DNA of 32,000 bases, taken from the NCBI GenBank assembly GCA_048882505.1, contig JBHLRO010000008.1, positions 1 to 32,000 on the forward strand, in the 5' to 3' direction. The DNA is from Candidatus Thorarchaeota archaeon (GTDB lineage Archaea; Asgardarchaeota; Heimdallarchaeia; Hodarchaeales; Hodarchaeaceae). A program made the translations under genes and the position numbers. Positions 8,176 through 15,224 of the stretch are shown one piece after another. Every line of letters begins with the position of its first letter. Within the stretch, counting starts at the first letter, position 1. The notes beneath the pieces were generated by a model that was not told the DNA's origin, did not search any database, and saw nothing but the letters and a program-made list of their open reading frames with translations.

Positions 8176-9213
8176 CTAGTTTGAACTCGCCTCTTCGTAG
8201 TAACGGACAAGAAGTAATAATACCCGAGTCGTCCAATCAATATATCGATTACGTCTTCGCCTCCAATTTTCCGACAATGGTAAAAACCTGGAGGTAGGAA
8301 TTCTTTCTCCAAAATCCCAAAAATTATCAGCTTTTTGAATTTCCCATAGCCAGGTTATAGTTCTCCCTGCGGCCCTTTGCCAGCTCGGGAACCTTGAGAG
8401 GATTTCCTGGGATGTAAACCAGGCTTCGACGGAGGGAGGACGAGAAAGATTAGGTTTCACGTTTACTGGAACCCCCACATATCCAAGCCCTTTCTTGTTA
8501 CGCCATAGCCAATTGAAAAATCTCTTTTCAAGTAAGTTTGGAAGCTGATCCGCCCTTGATCCAAGTAAGGTTACCAGATATTTATTGTTTGCATGTAAAT
8601 AATGAAGATTATTCTTTGGCACAACTAGTCCATGGATATCCCTATGGGCTTGAACTTCTTTTAACACCGAATACTCCCCTGATCCAAAAGTTGCTTTAAT
8701 TATCTCTATCCATTGATGCCAAATTGGAGTGAGGATTGGATCCGTGGGTTGAACTAGTGCGAGGATTGAAGCCACGAATAGGCGGGTACCGATCGGCCAT
8801 CGTTCATTTTTTTCTTCAGGATCTGGAAAGCGGACGTTACCCTTAATGAGTTGATGCAAGTATTCAATTACTCGTTTGATAACTATGTCTTCCAAATTTA
8901 AACCCAAACTTACAGCTCGTTCAACACCCCATTCAGTTGTTCCAATCTTCTGCCTTTTCATGGTATTTAATGAGTGAAACCTACCCCAGCTTCCGTCTGG
9001 ACGTTGCTCCTGCTCAAGAATATCTATCCATCTGCTCCTTCTTAGATCATTTTTAGCATCTATAAGGCTTTTGGTCGTTTTTGAGACCATTAGCACGTCT
9101 CTGATTATTCTAACCTGTACCACTGGATCGGGATTGAGTGCCAGAGTTGCTCGAGCGATTTCCTTAATGAATTCAAGGCCTTGAATCTTCAGTCCCTCTA
9201 TGTTGGCAATCAA
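8176..9213 (-). CDS. Hypothetical protein, probable prenyltransferase/squalene-cyclase-like alpha/alpha toroid (QW motifs)
   Basis: EQRPDGSWG and IQKADNFWDFG resemble QxxDGxW repeats; no DxDD motif; TTG start, uncertain. Confidence 0.6.
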   Translation of the reverse strand: MIANIEGLKIQGLEFIKEIARATLALNPDPVVQVRIIRDVLMVSKTTKSLIDAKNDLRRSRWIDILEQEQRPDGSWGRFHSLNTMKRQKIGTTEWGVERAVSLGLNLEDIVIKRVIEYLHQLIKGNVRFPDPEEKNERWPIGTRLFVASILALVQPTDPILTPIWHQWIEIIKATFGSGEYSVLKEVQAHRDIHGLVVPKNNLHYLHANNKYLVTLLGSRADQLPNLLEKRFFNWLWRNKKGLGYVGVPVNVKPNLSRPPSVEAWFTSQEILSRFPSWQRAAGRTITWLWEIQKADNFWDFGERIPTSRFLPLSENWRRRRNRYIDWTTRVLLLLVRYYEEASSN

Positions 9214-9298: not shown

Positions 9299-10138
9299 TC
9301 AGGTAAATCTAGTAAAAACACCATGTCCGTCTCTTATGATTTGTGTTAAGTTTCCTTTTACCGTTAAATTCAGCAGGAGGATTTCGTGAAATCCAGCTTC
9401 TAGTAAATGCCTAATCTCTATCAATTTTCCTCTCATCTGGCCAGATGCATCGTCTTTTCCGAATTCTTCTTTAATCAACCTATCTAGAGAATTTCTAGAA
9501 ATCTCAGGTAGTAATTCCGCGTTTGGGTCGACCTTTGGGTCGGCTGTGAAAACTCCGTTCACATCGGACCCAAAAACTACGGTTTTAGGCTGAAAATGCT
9601 TTGTTAGATCATACAAAATTTGATCTCCCGAAAGAACACTATACCCCAACGATTTATCCGGCACCATATCCCCTGAAATTACTGGGATCATCCCCACATC
9701 TAGAAACGAACTCAAATTATTGACATTCCCATGAACTACACGCCTATCGCTCGATTGATACATACTCGAAGCGTACAATTGGATTGCGGGAACTCCATGT
9801 CTTAATAGTGCCTCCAAAAATGTTTGACGTAAACGATTAACCGCAATCTGCGCCTCTAAAAATCCCACGCGTTGTCGTAAGGTCCCATCGGTACCTGTAT
9901 GTAAATTGTATTTCAAGACAGTATAGTGACCTGGGGAGCCAACACCCGTCAGAATGATCATCTTCGGTCTTTCATGTATAAGTTCACTTATCTCTCCGGC
10001 TATGTCATCGATTGTATTAACGTTTAACTGTAAAGCTTGTTTTATATCTTCAGGATGTTGAGTTCTCAGTGCGGTGTACAGTAAAGCCTTTTTCGATAGA
10101 CACGATCCCCCGATCTTGATGATTAAATCAATCTGCAT
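9299..10138 (-). CDS. ipk: Isopentenyl phosphate kinase (amino acid kinase family)
   Basis: IIKIGGS, GVGSPGH (IPK-specific His), PVISGD, LSGDQI, SDVNGVFTADPK, DASGQMRGK; ATG at 10138 (track TTG 10147). Confidence 0.88.
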   Translation of the reverse strand: MQIDLIIKIGGSCLSKKALLYTALRTQHPEDIKQALQLNVNTIDDIAGEISELIHERPKMIILTGVGSPGHYTVLKYNLHTGTDGTLRQRVGFLEAQIAVNRLRQTFLEALLRHGVPAIQLYASSMYQSSDRRVVHGNVNNLSSFLDVGMIPVISGDMVPDKSLGYSVLSGDQILYDLTKHFQPKTVVFGSDVNGVFTADPKVDPNAELLPEISRNSLDRLIKEEFGKDDASGQMRGKLIEIRHLLEAGFHEILLLNLTVKGNLTQIIRDGHGVFTRFT

Positions 10139-10343
10139 CTGAATCAAACCTGTACATGGTTTTTTTACGCAATCAGTTACATAGGGTCATTGAAATGAAA
10201 TGAGATCGAAAAATCTCTTTCCAACGGCCAAAATTTCATAACAAGACCTATTACGGGGATGGAATAGTGTGCTACAAGACCATTCCTAAAGATCATTCAA
10301 TTAAATTACTTTTTGCCAATAAAAAATCGAATTCTCCAACAAG

Positions 10344-10351
10344 TTTATAAG
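10344..10351 (+). promoter_or_regulatory. Archaeal TATA-box candidate TTTATAAG in the divergent ipk / prenol kinase intergenic region
   Basis: Consensus-like TTTATAA with purine-rich AACAAG upstream; near-symmetric, so it could serve both directions. Confidence 0.4.
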
Positions 10352-10427
10352 GACGTTCAATAAAATTCTCTGCTTACTCCTTCTTATCATAAAAATTGGC
10401 ACGCAGAAAATCAATTTGGTGAAAATT

Positions 10428-11231
10428 ATGGCTTATATCACACTTCTACCTGACCAACCGCTAATTTGGAATTTGCTTATGGGCGCGGTTGTTATGATGG
10501 TCTACATACAAGGGACAATATTTTTGATGTCACGTCTTGTAGATGCTGGAACGCTATCCTCTGATCTTTCACGGAAGGTAATCCATATTGCCGCAGGAAG
10601 TTATATTTGGATTTGGCTTTTTATCGACACCTCCGATATACTTTCTGCCATGTTCAATATCATCGTTCCTCTTCTTTTCTTCGCTACTTTCCTCTACAAG
10701 GGCTATAATGCGACATCAGAGGATAAGGATGTGAAAACTATGACTCGGACTGGAAACCCCAAAGAATTACTAAGAGGTCCGCTCTATTTCACGATTGTGA
10801 TGATGGTTGCTGGAACAATATTTCTTGATACTTGGGTTGGGGTCTTCATGATGGCTGTTGTAGGCTGGGGTGATGGTATAGCACCGTATATTGGAAAAAA
10901 GTACGGTGGTCGAACGTATAAGACTTTCGGCCCCGAAAAAACTATTACGGGCTCCTTAAGTGTCCTTATCTTTAGTGTCGCGGGATGTTTTGTATTTTAT
11001 GTTCTTCTTGGATTAATAGGAGGATTAGGTGGTCCTTTACTTCCAGATCCTGGAATCGACCTGGTCCAAATGCTCATGGTGATAATAATTCTTGGATTGG
11101 TGGCAATGATCGTGGAAGCGTTCTCACCTGCCGATATTGATAATCTACTTTTACCAGCATCAACAATTGTCGTGATGTTCGTTTTAAATCTCCTTTTGAG
11201 CGGGACTTTCTTTACTATATTCTTCCTATAG
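10428..11231 (+). CDS. CTP-dependent phytol/farnesol (prenol) kinase, VTE5/FOLK/dolichol kinase family
   Basis: LSRKVIHI, TRTGNPKELLRGPLYF, GWGDGIAPYIGKKYG, KTITGS, DNLLLP; multiple TM helices; ATG 10428 (track TTG 10416). Confidence 0.85.
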   Translation: MAYITLLPDQPLIWNLLMGAVVMMVYIQGTIFLMSRLVDAGTLSSDLSRKVIHIAAGSYIWIWLFIDTSDILSAMFNIIVPLLFFATFLYKGYNATSEDKDVKTMTRTGNPKELLRGPLYFTIVMMVAGTIFLDTWVGVFMMAVVGWGDGIAPYIGKKYGGRTYKTFGPEKTITGSLSVLIFSVAGCFVFYVLLGLIGGLGGPLLPDPGIDLVQMLMVIIILGLVAMIVEAFSPADIDNLLLPASTIVVMFVLNLLLSGTFFTIFFL

Positions 11232-11242
11232 TTGGCATCCCG

Positions 11243-11259
11243 TTTTTTCCCTTTTTTTT
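11243..11259 (+). terminator. Oligo-T terminator after prenol kinase
   Basis: T6-CCC-T8 starting 12 nt after the stop codon. Confidence 0.55.
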
Positions 11260-11434
11260 CTTATACCAAGGTTTTCACAACTGATGAAATTTTATAATCA
11301 GTGGGGATTTTAAAGAAGACAAATCGAGACGTTGTTCCTCTCCTCTTCATCGCAAGACAAAGAGATTTTTGGAACAACCGTGATTCAATCATTGCCTTAT
11401 ACGACACAAATAAGATACTGGAAGACGGCGAATT

Positions 11435-12514
11435 ATGAATAGTAGTTCCACTAATAGCCACAATAAGATTTTTCAGGCGCTTAAAAGCTGTAAAGATATT
11501 ATTTGGCCGATTATTGAAGAATATATTAGTCCCAAACCACTTCCATCTCTCTCACCACTTCTGATGCCGGAAATCGAAGAGCTCTTCTGGAAGCAAGTTT
11601 CGGATTATCCCAGGAGAGGGGGCAAATACATAAGATCCTCTCTGATAATTCTTACGTGCGAAGCGCTGGGAGGATCGCGGGAGGAGGCAAAATATACCGC
11701 AGCCGCCATGGAGATCTGTCAAAATTGGGCTCTAATTCATGATGATGTGGAAGATGACTCCAAAAAACGAAGGGGAAAACCCGCGCTACACTACGTTTAT
11801 TCAACAAATCACGCCATTAATGCTGGTGATGGGCTGCACGTAATGATGTGGGGCCTCTTAGGAAGGAACCTCGAGGTATTAAATCCTAATATATGTAGAA
11901 TGGTCTTCCAAGAATTTTATAATATGATGTTAAGAACCGTGGTGGGTCAAGCTGCCGATTTAACGCTCCGAAATTCAACAGATTTAACGATCGATGACAT
12001 CTATTACATAATGGACGGAAAAACGGGATATTACACAATAGGCGGGCCCATGCGGCTTGGAGCAATAATCGCTGGCTATGACCCGCATGATCCAGACAAT
12101 AAAGAATTATTTAAGAACATTAATTCTTTTGCAGTAAATCTAGGAAGGGCTTTTCAAATCATTGATGATTTACTTGATTTAACTACTGATTTTGAGGGAT
12201 TAAAAGTAAAAGGTAATGATATACAAGAAGGAAAACGCTCTATACTACTTGTAAAATTATTCCAAAAAGCAACGGATAAAGACTACCAGGATATTAACAA
12301 CATTATGAAGAAAACACCTGGATCAAGAACCGAAGCAGAGATAAGAAAAATCCTTTCATTCATGGATGAATATGGAATATTTGAAGAAACACGATCAATA
12401 GCGAACGAATTAGCAAGAAAAACCCGAGAAATACTTAATAATCTTCCATTTCACAAAGAATCACTTGAATTGATGGACCTCCTGGTTCAATTCCTGGTAT
12501 CCAGAACCTATTAG
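11435..12514 (+). CDS. idsA: Short-chain trans-prenyl diphosphate synthase (GGPP synthase-like)
   Basis: GGKYIR, FARM LIHDDVEDDSKKRRGKP, GQAADL, KTGYYT, SARM FQIIDDLLD, DIQEGK. Confidence 0.92.
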   Translation: MNSSSTNSHNKIFQALKSCKDIIWPIIEEYISPKPLPSLSPLLMPEIEELFWKQVSDYPRRGGKYIRSSLIILTCEALGGSREEAKYTAAAMEICQNWALIHDDVEDDSKKRRGKPALHYVYSTNHAINAGDGLHVMMWGLLGRNLEVLNPNICRMVFQEFYNMMLRTVVGQAADLTLRNSTDLTIDDIYYIMDGKTGYYTIGGPMRLGAIIAGYDPHDPDNKELFKNINSFAVNLGRAFQIIDDLLDLTTDFEGLKVKGNDIQEGKRSILLVKLFQKATDKDYQDINNIMKKTPGSRTEAEIRKILSFMDEYGIFEETRSIANELARKTREILNNLPFHKESLELMDLLVQFLVSRTY

Positions 12515-12707: not shown

Positions 12708-15224
12708 TTAAGTTCTATCTTTTCTTCTCTTTTTTCCCAATATGACCATTGAGAATATTACCAGCGTTCCTAGCGACAGAAACAGTTCAAATCCAGGCGT
12801 CCTTCTTGGGTTCATTTCTGGGGCTAAGATTTGCGAAGCCAGCAATTGGGTCGCCAATATTTCCGTGGAAAGAAGCGATGAATAATAGTTGTAAGTGGGG
12901 AGGTCAAAGGACAGATAGTGATACGCAACAGCTTCGATTAAAACTTCAAGGGTAGCGTTCCTGTAGTTAGCTCCATCCCAGGTTCGAACGACATCAACAT
13001 ACAGGTAGGACTCACTAGAAACAGTTTGGACAAGCATGGTAATCCACGATTTCGTTGAATCGGATCCTGAATTGAAACTGTTGAAAACTTCAAGATTGAA
13101 AAGGTTTCCTCCGAGAACGTTAACATCCTGGATTGTGGCATTCCAAGACGAAGGCCCGCTGGTATAATTGCCATGTAGGATTGCGGTAATGTTGTAGATT
13201 CTGTTTTCAAGTAACCTAAGTGGTATTCCGTATAGGTGATCTGCGGCAGCGACCAAGTCGTCATTTACAGCAAAAGAAGTTGTTGCGATTATTGGATTTT
13301 TCGGAATAAAGTAACCCCCTCCAATATAAGTCCAACTATTAAATGATCCGTGTTGGACTTGCGCGACATTCGTACTCACTGTTAGCTCGGCCGAAAATGG
13401 ATCGGGGAATTGCCCAGTAGTATTTTGTGCATCATAAGGACGAATAATTAAAATCGGCTGTTCGTAATCTCGTGTTGGCAGAAAAGATGCTATGACTGAA
13501 TTATTGGAGTTCCATGCAGTCCATTGGTTAGATATATTTTGATTGCCAATCCAAGTATACCACGGACTGTAGAAATTTCTTATCATTTCGTTATATTTTC
13601 CAACCCAGCCGTATTCGTATTGAACCTGTTGATTTGGCAATTTGTGATCATTCGTTGATATATTGACGAAATTAATACGATTTCGCATCATCGGAAGTTC
13701 AAAAGCGAAAAGACTGTTTCTCGACACAGAAACGGTAGATGGGGATGAAATAGGGATTTTAGTAAACCTAAACTGGTGAGACGAAAAATAATACGTAAAT
13801 CTGATTGCATATGTCCCTGCGGGAAAATACCGCCAATTATTTCCTATATCAGTATTCGAATCCCCGAAGAGGTTACCATACTCAGGTTCAAAAAAGTTTC
13901 TGTCGGATATTTGCTCCCAGGTATTAGGCTCAGTTCCGGGTCGGTACAGGTAAAAATAGAAATAACGGGCATACCCAGGATAAGTGTAGTTCATGGCGAT
14001 CATATGAGGTGAATTTAGGGTGAAATAGTAATAGATGTAGTACCCCGGGTTTTGGAAGTTCTCGTTGAAGACCAGCTCTGCGGCATCAACAATTTCGTCT
14101 GGTGGTTTTGGCTTATTTTGATAGAAGATTGTGTATTCTCCTACTGACCAACCTTGTGCAAAAAAGACAAGTAGCGCACTTTCATTCCTAGGCGCGAAAA
14201 GCTGATATCCGTTTTGATCCAATCCTCCTCCTAAAAAGTCAGCATGTTCACTGACCAAGAATACAAAAGGTTGCCCGCTTGTAAATCCCGAAGATTCGAG
14301 CATACGAAAATTTACAAATATTTCATACAGGTTGTTTTCTATCAAAGAGATATTGAAAATCCGAATACTGAATATTTCATTTTCCGGGAATATAACGGTA
14401 TTTCCTGAGACTGTCTCACGGGTTCCCTGATTGATTTCGCCAGAATAAGTGGTATTAACATCAATTGAAGGAAGATAAGAGGGAAATTGCCAAGAATGGG
14501 CAGTAAGGGTTACTAATGAGCCTGTGTCAAGCCATAGAGTAAAGTTTAAAGGCGTTATGGAATCATTCTTTGGTATAAAGGCGTAGGTCATTTGTTTCTC
14601 AATATAGCCTATGGAATATCCTTGTCTTGGGTGCGCATCAGGAAATACAATTGTTCCTTCTGCATTCCCATCGAAGATATCAATATCTAAGTAGAAGGGC
14701 TCACTTGTATTAAGAAATCCAAAATAGTTTGTAAATCCCTCCGCCATGAACGAATAAGAGTAATCCATGTGGAGACTAATCGCCTGCGGTGCATTTGAGG
14801 TTTCAAAAATGGGATTGAAAGTGGATGGAATTCTCACAGCTCGTGGATAAGGCTCTGGTTCAAAAAGAGGATGGACTCCATATCTTAGATTATCCGTTAG
14901 CAGACTGTCGGATACAAAAGTACCCCTTTCGAGGTCAAGTGAAAACTCATTGAACTCGTTGTAGTTAGAAAAAGATGTGTATTCTGCATTTTGACTCCCA
15001 CTAATACCTCCATAAACGATATCAGCGTCCGAATAATCCTCTCCTGGGTGATTGATGTAATATAGCCAGTCATCGTACTGATCTTCAGGAACAAAAGTAT
15101 CTACCTCAAGAGGTTTAGGAAAAATAACAGGAATTTGTGCAGATATTGGTAAAACAACTAAAACAGCCAATATAAATATGAAGTGAACAGCCAAGGATAG
15201 TATTTTGTATTTACGAGCTTTCAT
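12708..15224 (-). CDS. Cell-surface glycoprotein with PGF-CTERM-like sorting signal
   Basis: N-terminal signal peptide; many N-x-S/T sequons; C-terminal TPGF + TM helix + KKRRK. Confidence 0.85.
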   Translation of the reverse strand: MKARKYKILSLAVHFIFILAVLVVLPISAQIPVIFPKPLEVDTFVPEDQYDDWLYYINHPGEDYSDADIVYGGISGSQNAEYTSFSNYNEFNEFSLDLERGTFVSDSLLTDNLRYGVHPLFEPEPYPRAVRIPSTFNPIFETSNAPQAISLHMDYSYSFMAEGFTNYFGFLNTSEPFYLDIDIFDGNAEGTIVFPDAHPRQGYSIGYIEKQMTYAFIPKNDSITPLNFTLWLDTGSLVTLTAHSWQFPSYLPSIDVNTTYSGEINQGTRETVSGNTVIFPENEIFSIRIFNISLIENNLYEIFVNFRMLESSGFTSGQPFVFLVSEHADFLGGGLDQNGYQLFAPRNESALLVFFAQGWSVGEYTIFYQNKPKPPDEIVDAAELVFNENFQNPGYYIYYYFTLNSPHMIAMNYTYPGYARYFYFYLYRPGTEPNTWEQISDRNFFEPEYGNLFGDSNTDIGNNWRYFPAGTYAIRFTYYFSSHQFRFTKIPISSPSTVSVSRNSLFAFELPMMRNRINFVNISTNDHKLPNQQVQYEYGWVGKYNEMIRNFYSPWYTWIGNQNISNQWTAWNSNNSVIASFLPTRDYEQPILIIRPYDAQNTTGQFPDPFSAELTVSTNVAQVQHGSFNSWTYIGGGYFIPKNPIIATTSFAVNDDLVAAADHLYGIPLRLLENRIYNITAILHGNYTSGPSSWNATIQDVNVLGGNLFNLEVFNSFNSGSDSTKSWITMLVQTVSSESYLYVDVVRTWDGANYRNATLEVLIEAVAYHYLSFDLPTYNYYSSLLSTEILATQLLASQILAPEMNPRRTPGFELFLSLGTLVIFSMVILGKKRRKDRT

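Follow-up and report, generated by a model that had tools for sequence, protein, structure and literature searches.

Assays have for decades detected kinase activity on polyprenols and polyprenyl phosphates, also in an archaeon, and the only genes assigned to it are VTE5, FOLK and VTE6 of plants and cyanobacteria and one prenol kinase of Plasmodium (PMC9782597, PMC13022625). Prenol salvage is termed a 'missing pathway' in reviews of 2022 and 2026, to which no polyprenyl-phosphate kinase gene outside VTE6 is known (PMC9782597, PMC13022625). A two-enzyme route from prenol to diphosphate was demonstrated biochemically in the archaeon Sulfolobus acidocaldarius in 1996, and its genes were never assigned (PMC9385802, PMC10849223). 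Here we describe a locus of Candidatus Thorarchaeota archaeon (Hodarchaeaceae; assembly GCA_048882505.1), located in positions 1 to 32,000 of contig JBHLRO010000008.1; this whole 32,000-nucleotide stretch is referred to as the window. The locus consists of IPK2, an isopentenyl phosphate kinase (IPK)-family gene of a KIN-linked paralogue clade (9299..10147, minus strand, 282 amino acids), KIN, encoding a multi-pass membrane protein of the CTP_transf_1/polyprenol-kinase superfamily (10416..11231, plus strand, 271 amino acids), and IDS, an IdsA/GGPPS-like short-chain trans-prenyl diphosphate synthase gene (11435..12514, plus strand, 359 amino acids). A preliminary description had joined these three genes into one salvage route from isoprenoid alcohols to lipids; all three open reading frames were present at the coordinates it gave, and the family identities hold. 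On balance we favour the view that KIN and IPK2 form a two-step module that would activate an alcohol to its monophosphate and then to its diphosphate.

The proposed module was compared with the described systems. VTE5 (phytol kinase) and VTE6 (phytyl-phosphate kinase) likewise carry out two successive phosphorylations of an isoprenoid alcohol, and VTE5 is, like KIN, a membrane kinase of the CTP_transf_1 superfamily. The partner of KIN, however, is a soluble IPK paralogue of amino-acid-kinase fold and not a DUF92 (PF01940, COG1836) membrane protein, and the window contains no VTE5/VTE6-type pair, the sole DUF92 gene of the genome being located on another contig (C41). We propose that KIN-IPK2 works like VTE5/VTE6 without being a member of that system, with the DUF92 partner replaced by an IPK paralogue. 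By description, the farnesol kinase FOLK of Arabidopsis and the prenol kinase PfPolK of Plasmodium share superfamily and membrane topology with KIN, and no partner second kinase is known for either. Dolichol kinase (Sec59/arCOG01881) belongs to the same superfamily, and automatic annotation usually gives KIN homologues this name (PMC5898192), but no link between a dolichol kinase and an IPK has been described. Canonical archaeal IPKs, which catalyze the last step of archaeal mevalonate pathways (3LL9, 3K4O and 3LKK), share fold and catalytic residues with IPK2, whereas IPK2 forms a separate, coexisting clade with near-fixed differences in the proposed substrate motifs and is encoded beside KIN and not beside mevalonate genes. 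Engineered isoprenol/isopentenol pathways also use an alcohol kinase followed by IPK (PMC8500459, PMC9654404); these are synthetic and employ soluble promiscuous kinases, while KIN-IPK2 would be natural and co-inherited, with a membrane protein as the first enzyme. When S. acidocaldarius was searched as a control, no IPK above the NF040647 cut-off was found, and its prenol enzymes are thus probably not a KIN-IPK2 pair. Neither the full-text literature searched nor five reviews (PMC9782597, PMC13022625, PMC9385802, PMC5898192 and PMC11052028) mention a polyprenol kinase with a linked IPK paralogue. The preliminary description knew of no such clustered salvage system in Asgard archaea.

The pairing was followed by a KIN search of 201 Asgard genomes with subsequent tblastn of the window proteins on the retrieved loci, and by a KIN motif scan of 185,579 species genomes that yielded 80 organism-named loci; many of the genomes are incomplete metagenome-assembled genomes. 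An IPK directly adjoins KIN in many families of the Asgard sample. In the motif scan, an IPK was located within 1 kb of KIN in 36 of 37 loci from other Asgard or unclassified archaea (35 on the same strand), in 12 of 13 from non-Asgard archaea (12 on the same strand) and in all 11 from bacteria (11 on the same strand), as compared with 2 of 19 Heimdall/Hodarchaeales-type loci (one on the same strand). Outside the latter type, 59 of 61 loci therefore carry the pair, 58 of them with both genes on one strand. The median gap between the two genes is 18 nt, and the open reading frames overlap in eight loci. The two gene orders are nearly equal in number (KIN first in 30, IPK first in 29), which argues for selection on adjacency itself. 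Archaeal carriers include Thor-, Loki- (among them the cultured Promethearchaeum syntrophicum MK-D1), Njord- and Asgardarchaeia, Thermofilaceae, DHVE2/Aciduliprofundum and Thermoplasmata, and the bacterial carriers are labelled Caldithrix, KSB1 and Cytophagia. A functional link between KIN and IPK is thus supported by a pair conservation that, spanning three archaeal phyla and bacteria, is among the strongest obtainable from sequence. The synteny suggested in the preliminary description was found for KIN and IPK across Asgard archaea and beyond, together with a dedicated IPK clade (see below), but not for the triple: the conserved unit is KIN plus IPK, and IDS is not a conserved member. Among the Heimdall loci that keep the pair, the window and its nearest relative (L045/L132) have it in divergent orientation and one more has IPK followed by KIN on one strand. 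The window hence belongs to the only lineage in which the pair is mostly separated. Prediction of a KIN and IPK2 complex (with alignments) scored 0.00 and gave no answer; it counts neither way.

Two individual loci are also described here. In MK-D1 (L182:2510-5076; NZ_CP042905.2, about 2727296-2729862) UbiA, KIN and IPK2 follow one another in this order on the same strand, separated by 41 and 11 nt. Locus L208 (DATKTW010000156.1), labelled Candidatus Nanopelagicaceae, has KIN followed by IPK2, and its IPK2 is sister to a Lokiarchaeial sequence; this 'actinobacterial' contig is probably a mis-binned Asgard contig.

The window IPK matched the NF040647 model (IPPK_Arch) with 167.9 bits in the protein search and 165.7 bits in the genome search (cut-off 120), in addition to Pfam AA_kinase (PF00696), and its best solved relatives are the IPK structures 3LL9 and 7N9D. 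Two IPK-family matches at E-values of 1e-25 or lower were observed in about 50 of the 201 Asgard genomes. Phylogenetic trees were built from KIN-adjacent IPKs, non-adjacent second copies and single-copy IPKs of other families. In the 94-row tree, all 47 KIN-adjacent IPKs and the IPKs of the window's genus fell into one clade of 55 rows (SH-aLRT 98), designated IPK2, with members in Asgard archaea, Thermoplasmatota, Thermofilaceae and bacteria; the 36 other IPKs all fell outside it. The clade was recovered in an 81-row tree with an SH-aLRT of 97, both trees being quick searches with SH-aLRT as the only support and rooted on a fast-evolving fusion clade. The window IPK lies within IPK2, apart from the canonical clade of mevalonate-pathway IPKs, and is not an ortholog of the latter. 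The copies not linked to KIN are mevalonate enzymes. In the Lokiarchaeial family f13 the canonical IPK is fused to type-2 isopentenyl diphosphate isomerase (FMN_dh; L079:3974-5878, open frames of about 632-642 amino acids). The canonical IPK of family f16 (L107:3464-4798) has an N-terminal extension of about 180 amino acids without a Pfam match.

Across 24 IPK2 sequences, no variation was observed at K11, G13, G14, G68, G70, G73, H74, D160, D175, D233 and K241. The catalytic residues are common to canonical IPKs, including the KxGGS motif, the His of GSxGH and the Asp and Lys of phosphoryl transfer. The two clades are separated by a signature (numbering of the window protein; 55 IPK2 versus 36 canonical sequences): position 69 is V in 50 of 55 IPK2 and G or A in 36 of 36 canonical sequences, position 77 is V in 44 versus A in 36, position 100 is Q in 44 versus R or H in 27, position 103 is V in 53 versus M in 34, position 158 (before the GD motif) is S or G in 41 versus H, Y, W or F in 33, and position 171 is V in 48 versus I in 36, while positions 234-235 are mostly A-S in IPK2 and mostly V-T in canonical IPKs. 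From the literature and the alignment to 3LL9, we take the near-fixed changes to lie in putative substrate-binding motifs, and they count in favour of the proposed module.

The probable true start of KIN is the ATG at 10428, and the database copy has 267 amino acids. No match to PDB chains was found for KIN by sequence or profile search. The sources of its close homologues name them diacylglycerol/polyprenol kinase, dolichol kinase or phytol kinase, and some sources use phosphatidate cytidylyltransferase; its neighbours in the protein atlas are 'diacylglycerol/polyprenol kinase' and 'phytol kinase' clusters. Weak PF01148 matches were obtained for some relatives (homologues at 55-66 % identity). 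When 24 diverse members were aligned, R53, K54, H57, M109, R111, G152, D153, G154, K175, E234, D242 and N243 were invariant, and the family motifs RKxxH, MxR, WGDG and DN are present in KIN. This set includes the Arg-Lys-His motif typical of the kinase branch (R53, K54 and H57) and the putative acidic positions of a di-metal site (D153 and D242-N243). An Arg-Lys-His triad like that of KIN has been described for PfPolK (PMC10849223), and two conserved Asp residues form the metal site of the superfamily according to Makarova and colleagues (PMC5898192).

The AlphaFold model of KIN (pLDDT 91.4) has eight long helices and two short loop helices. Its C-terminal half (residues 139-269) contains two of the invariant Asp residues and superposes on the catalytic domains of CdsA 4Q2E (Z 7.5, root-mean-square deviation 3.2, 117 residues) and CarS 5GUF (Z 7.3, deviation 3.1, 106 residues), Z values that are modest for a helical protein; the top Foldseek match of the model in PDB was also 4Q2E, a weak one (E-value 0.02). 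Judged by homologues, motifs and predicted fold, KIN is a membrane protein of the CTP_transf_1/polyprenol-kinase superfamily, and we propose that it is a CTP-dependent isoprenoid-alcohol kinase. The 'VTE5/FOLK-like' kinase of the preliminary description stands at superfamily level. Other contigs of the genome encode CarS (C67) and a further two CTP_transf_1-like paralogues, so KIN is not the sole candidate for the housekeeping roles of such enzymes. Additional KIN paralogues without an IPK neighbour occur in Asgard genomes and may be true dolichol kinases. IPK-adjacent members abound in each of the two large subclades of the KIN tree, and the groups broadly match those of the IPK2 tree, a pattern that a co-inherited pair with some inter-domain transfer would give. 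For family f2 of the Heimdallarchaeia, the sole KIN-like match falls within open reading frames of 530-550 amino acids (L119:2143-3741 and L120:2113-3729), possibly fusions with another domain such as DUF92.

The bacterial carriers were also searched for isoprenoid pathways. HMG-CoA reductase was not found in four of five tested carriers, and IspH was found in all five. Since these are genomes of the methylerythritol phosphate (MEP) pathway and four of the five have no HMG-CoA reductase, the pair cannot serve a mevalonate pathway there; this occurrence would fit a self-contained route from alcohol to monophosphate and diphosphate. A PcrB/GGGPS-family prenyltransferase was present in 9 of 10 bacterial carriers, a weak context with no known base rate for these phyla.

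In the proposed module, membrane-bound KIN, a kinase of the VTE5/FOLK/dolichol-kinase kind, would phosphorylate a free prenol, probably with CTP, to a prenyl monophosphate. Soluble IPK2 would then add the second phosphate from ATP to give the prenyl diphosphate, which prenyl diphosphate synthases or prenyltransferases would consume, here possibly the neighbouring IDS and elsewhere UbiA-type enzymes. In the window's genome IPK2 may double as the last step of the archaeal mevalonate pathway; alternatively, a kinase fusion described below may perform that step. Sequence, phylogeny and synteny are the basis on which we infer the two activities, the substrate and the donor nucleotides. Alcohols of C10-C20 (geranylgeraniol, farnesol and phytol) are favoured over C5, because the first enzyme is a membrane protein and IPK2 has small-for-large substitutions; chain length is the least certain part of the proposal. 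A broader version is possible and is put forward tentatively: IPK2 could be the long-sought polyprenyl-phosphate kinase of archaea and several bacterial phyla, acting on geranylgeranyl, farnesyl or phytyl phosphate, and KIN-IPK2 an ancient, horizontally mobile cassette, unlike VTE5/VTE6, through which scavenged or recycled prenols would enter membrane ether lipids and further isoprenoids without mevalonate or MEP.

As a pair co-inherited across archaeal phyla and MEP bacteria, KIN and IPK2 are concrete candidates for both salvage steps, with one such pair in the cultured MK-D1. If the proposal is true, sediment archaea would feed scavenged isoprenoid alcohols into membrane lipids, with a bearing on the interpretation of lipid biomarkers and isotopes; the IPK family would have a second functional class; and natural enzymes would be available for two-step alcohol-to-diphosphate routes that are now assembled from promiscuous parts. 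In addition, automatic 'IPK present' calls in surveys of the Asgard mevalonate pathway mix two paralogues.

Several observations weigh against the proposal or speak both ways, and the first group concerns the IPK2 pocket. In Thermoplasma IPK, residues Y70, V73, V130 and I140 (R1-R4) set the alkyl pocket and smaller side chains widen the substrate range, and wild-type IPKs act poorly on chains of 10 or more atoms (PMC8500459). These positions were assigned to F96, A99, V162 and L172 of the window protein from the 3LL9 alignment and spacing, not from a structure. On this assignment, and in favour of the proposal, R2 is Ala in 20 of 55 IPK2 and in no canonical sequence; at R4, 31 of 55 IPK2 carry Gly, Cys or Ala, as does no canonical sequence, the window protein itself having Leu there. 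Some other IPK2 positions are bulkier (G69V and A77V). Taken together, the IPK2 changes suggest a reshaped, probably longer pocket, but the pattern is mixed and is not proof. The known preference of IPKs and the coexistence of VTE5-like/DUF92 proteins would favour a shorter or different chain. DUF92 was found in 10 of 10 bacterial carriers, inside open reading frames of about 500-530 amino acids; these proteins and KIN-IPK2 coexist there and are probably not redundant. DUF92 was not found in the MK-D1 (closed genome), DHVE2, Thermoplasmata or Njord carriers.

The second group concerns KIN and the window's own lineage. KIN matched no Pfam or NCBIfam profile, even at E = 10, and its placement relative to VTE5, FOLK, Sec59 and Dgk1 is at superfamily level. 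Separation of the two genes is the rule in the window's own genus (2 intact pairs among 19 Heimdall/Hodarchaeales-type loci), and selection for coupling is therefore weak or lost there. The DUF92 protein VTE6 is the known second kinase of plants, and the single DUF92 (VTE6-like) gene of the window's genome (C41:7738-8532; L038:1459-2358, minus strand), directly downstream of an AMP-binding acyl/aryl-CoA ligase-type gene, is a candidate rival second kinase. Finally, the window IPK may also be needed for de novo synthesis, because the mevalonate operon of this genome has no IPK, and it may simply be a housekeeping enzyme.

This last point was pursued in the genome itself. HMG-CoA reductase is encoded, and a tight operon on contig C2 (C2:56982-62814; L212:1983-7815) contains genes for mevalonate kinase, a UbiD-type decarboxylase, the large and small AcnX subunits, UbiX and the type-2 isomerase IDI2. 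By its gene content, this operon is an archaeal mevalonate route to isopentenyl phosphate plus the isomerase, without IPK. The pathway, whose completeness the preliminary description had left to be checked, is thus complete apart from an IPK in the operon. Diphosphomevalonate decarboxylase was not found in the genome search; given this result and the AcnX/UbiD operon, a eukaryote-type mevalonate pathway that would make IPK needless was rejected. The window IPK2 is the only IPK above the NF040647 cut-off, and no canonical IPK was found elsewhere in the genome.

A second candidate for the step is a 572-amino-acid fusion (C13:57614-59329; L036:676-2394, minus strand) of an IPK-like amino-acid-kinase domain, in which the His of GSxGH is kept, and a metallo-beta-lactamase domain. 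It was present in 10 of 10 sampled genomes of the window's genus, including the window's own, and in none elsewhere in 27 Asgard families, with one f4 genome matching its metallo-beta-lactamase part only. The fusion hence occurs in the same genus that is without a canonical IPK, and it is possibly a displaced or diverged housekeeping IPK. The closed genome CP070695, which belongs to this genus, has KIN, AcnX and the fusion, and IPK2 was not found in it. That the fusion is the housekeeping IPK with IPK2 as an accessory enzyme, and that IPK2 took over the housekeeping step, appear about equally probable; the latter would also explain the drift of IPK2 away from KIN in this genus.

These data bear on the alternative that survives best, although we consider it unlikely. 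Under it, a mevalonate IPK, a dolichol/polyprenol kinase for the glycan-carrier lipid and the main geranylgeranyl diphosphate (GGPP) synthase would be ordinary housekeeping enzymes whose adjacency reflects shared regulation. It would fit a genome in which IPK2 is the only IPK above the family cut-off and the C2 operon needs one, the dispersal of the pair in most genomes of the genus, the dolichol kinase annotation of KIN homologues and the view that archaeal dolichol kinase (arCOG01881) is ancestral and near-universal (PMC5898192). However, it does not explain why a second IPK stands beside KIN where a canonical, sometimes IDI2-fused, IPK exists, nor the operonic pair in MEP bacteria without HMG-CoA reductase. 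In addition, IPK2 looks dispensable in CP070695, which has AcnX and KIN, and the Asgard KIN paralogues without an IPK neighbour could supply the dolichol kinase.

A rather improbable alternative is that the pair is specific for C5 compounds, with KIN acting on isopentenol or dimethylallyl alcohol and IPK2 converting isopentenyl and dimethylallyl phosphates to the diphosphates, which would recover C5 units lost to phosphatases or taken up and would be nature's equivalent of the engineered two-step isoprenol pathways. The native IPK substrates are indeed C5 monophosphates and long chains are handled poorly (PMC8500459), several IPK2-specific residues are bulkier (see above), and the putative VTE5-like/DUF92 fusions of the bacterial carriers may handle long prenols, leaving another chain length to the pair. 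A polytopic membrane kinase would nevertheless be odd for a water-miscible C5 alcohol, and the characterised relatives VTE5, FOLK, PfPolK and Sec59 all take C15 or longer (PMC10849223, PMC9782597). Furthermore, the small-for-large changes at positions 103 and 158, and often at R2 and R4, resemble those that engineer geranyl and farnesyl phosphate activity (PMC8500459).

It is very improbable that KIN is a cytidylyltransferase or a kinase of another lipid (archaeol, a diacylglycerol-like lipid or a CDP-activated intermediate) with IPK2 acting on an unrelated small phosphomonoester: the superfamily does include the cytidylyltransferases CdsA and CarS and the CTP-dependent diacylglycerol kinase Dgk1, CdsA and CarS are the only solved structural matches of KIN, some homologues are annotated as phosphatidate cytidylyltransferase and fosfomycin kinases are among the IPK relatives, but CarS is encoded separately, KIN has the RKxxH motif of the kinase branch (PMC10849223), the recurrent neighbours are prenyl synthases and UbiA prenyltransferases, and IPK2 nests within the IPKs with all IPK catalytic residues kept. 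KIN as the CDP-archaeol synthase was rejected, CarS being present on C67.

The neighbours of the pair were analyzed by clustering all flanking open reading frames, and no universal third neighbour was found, only lineage-specific ones (IDS, UbiA, HAD and a URO-D-like protein). The IDS protein of the window matched the polyprenyl synthase family PF00348 with 177.9 bits and has both Asp-rich motifs, DDVED at residue 103 and DDLLD at residue 244. The first (FARM) has the context CQNWALIHDDVED with Trp at position -5, and the second (SARM) reads IIDDLLD. The best NCBIfam models are IdsA_Meth (163 bits) and GGPP_syn (158 bits), far below their cut-offs of 468-500, and an encapsulin-cargo polyprenyl transferase model also matches below its cut-off. 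In archaeal GGPP synthases a bulky residue five before the FARM gives a short product, and the Trp at -5 suggests the same for IDS. A second IDS gene is present in the same genome (C2:193812-194843). Among close relatives, IDS is located beside KIN only in L132 and L134/L007. Unrelated IDS genes adjoin the pair in three Thorarchaeota loci (in the order IDS, KIN, IPK2) and a KIN in one f16 locus, and in family f17 the KIN paralogue that adjoins an IDS lacks a neighbouring IPK. IDS is thus a lineage-specific neighbour of the pair.

In MK-D1 a UbiA prenyltransferase gene precedes KIN by 41 nt, and in three relatives one is located about 760 nt from KIN. Five loci of four lineages, including Thermofilaceae, Asgardarchaeia and Thermoplasmata (L158:4744-5439, L154:3555-4259, L042:4070-4822, L173:1641-2387 and L179:1038-1688), have a HAD-family hydrolase gene at a distance of 0.5-1.8 kb from the pair, whose product is possibly a phosphatase counterpart. 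The URO-D-like protein is near the pair in some bacteria.

In the window, IPK2 and KIN are separated by a divergent spacer of 268 nt (10148..10415). On inspection this spacer is AT-rich, with TATA-like TTTATAA and ATAAAAAT stretches, and both promoters are presumed to lie within it. IDS starts 203 nt beyond KIN on the plus strand. The divergent layout around the spacer is retained in the nearest relatives L045 and L132, with identities to the window of 77 % for IPK and 92 % for KIN, and of 77 % for IDS in L132; L045 is too short to reveal an IDS neighbour. Kept in the nearest relatives and with an adjacency that recurs across phyla, the KIN-IPK arrangement is not due to chance.

Two flanking genes were also noted. 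A 345-amino-acid QW-motif protein is encoded 3' of IPK2 (8176-9213, minus strand), with a faint match to the squalene-hopene-cyclase C domain (E-value 0.14); it was rejected as a cluster member as it is not beside IPK in L132. On the other side, an 838-amino-acid protein (12708-15224, minus strand) has a C-terminal, sub-threshold Heimdall-CTERM match (18.7 bits, cut-off 24), and its gene adjoins IDS in the nearest relative too (71 % identity).

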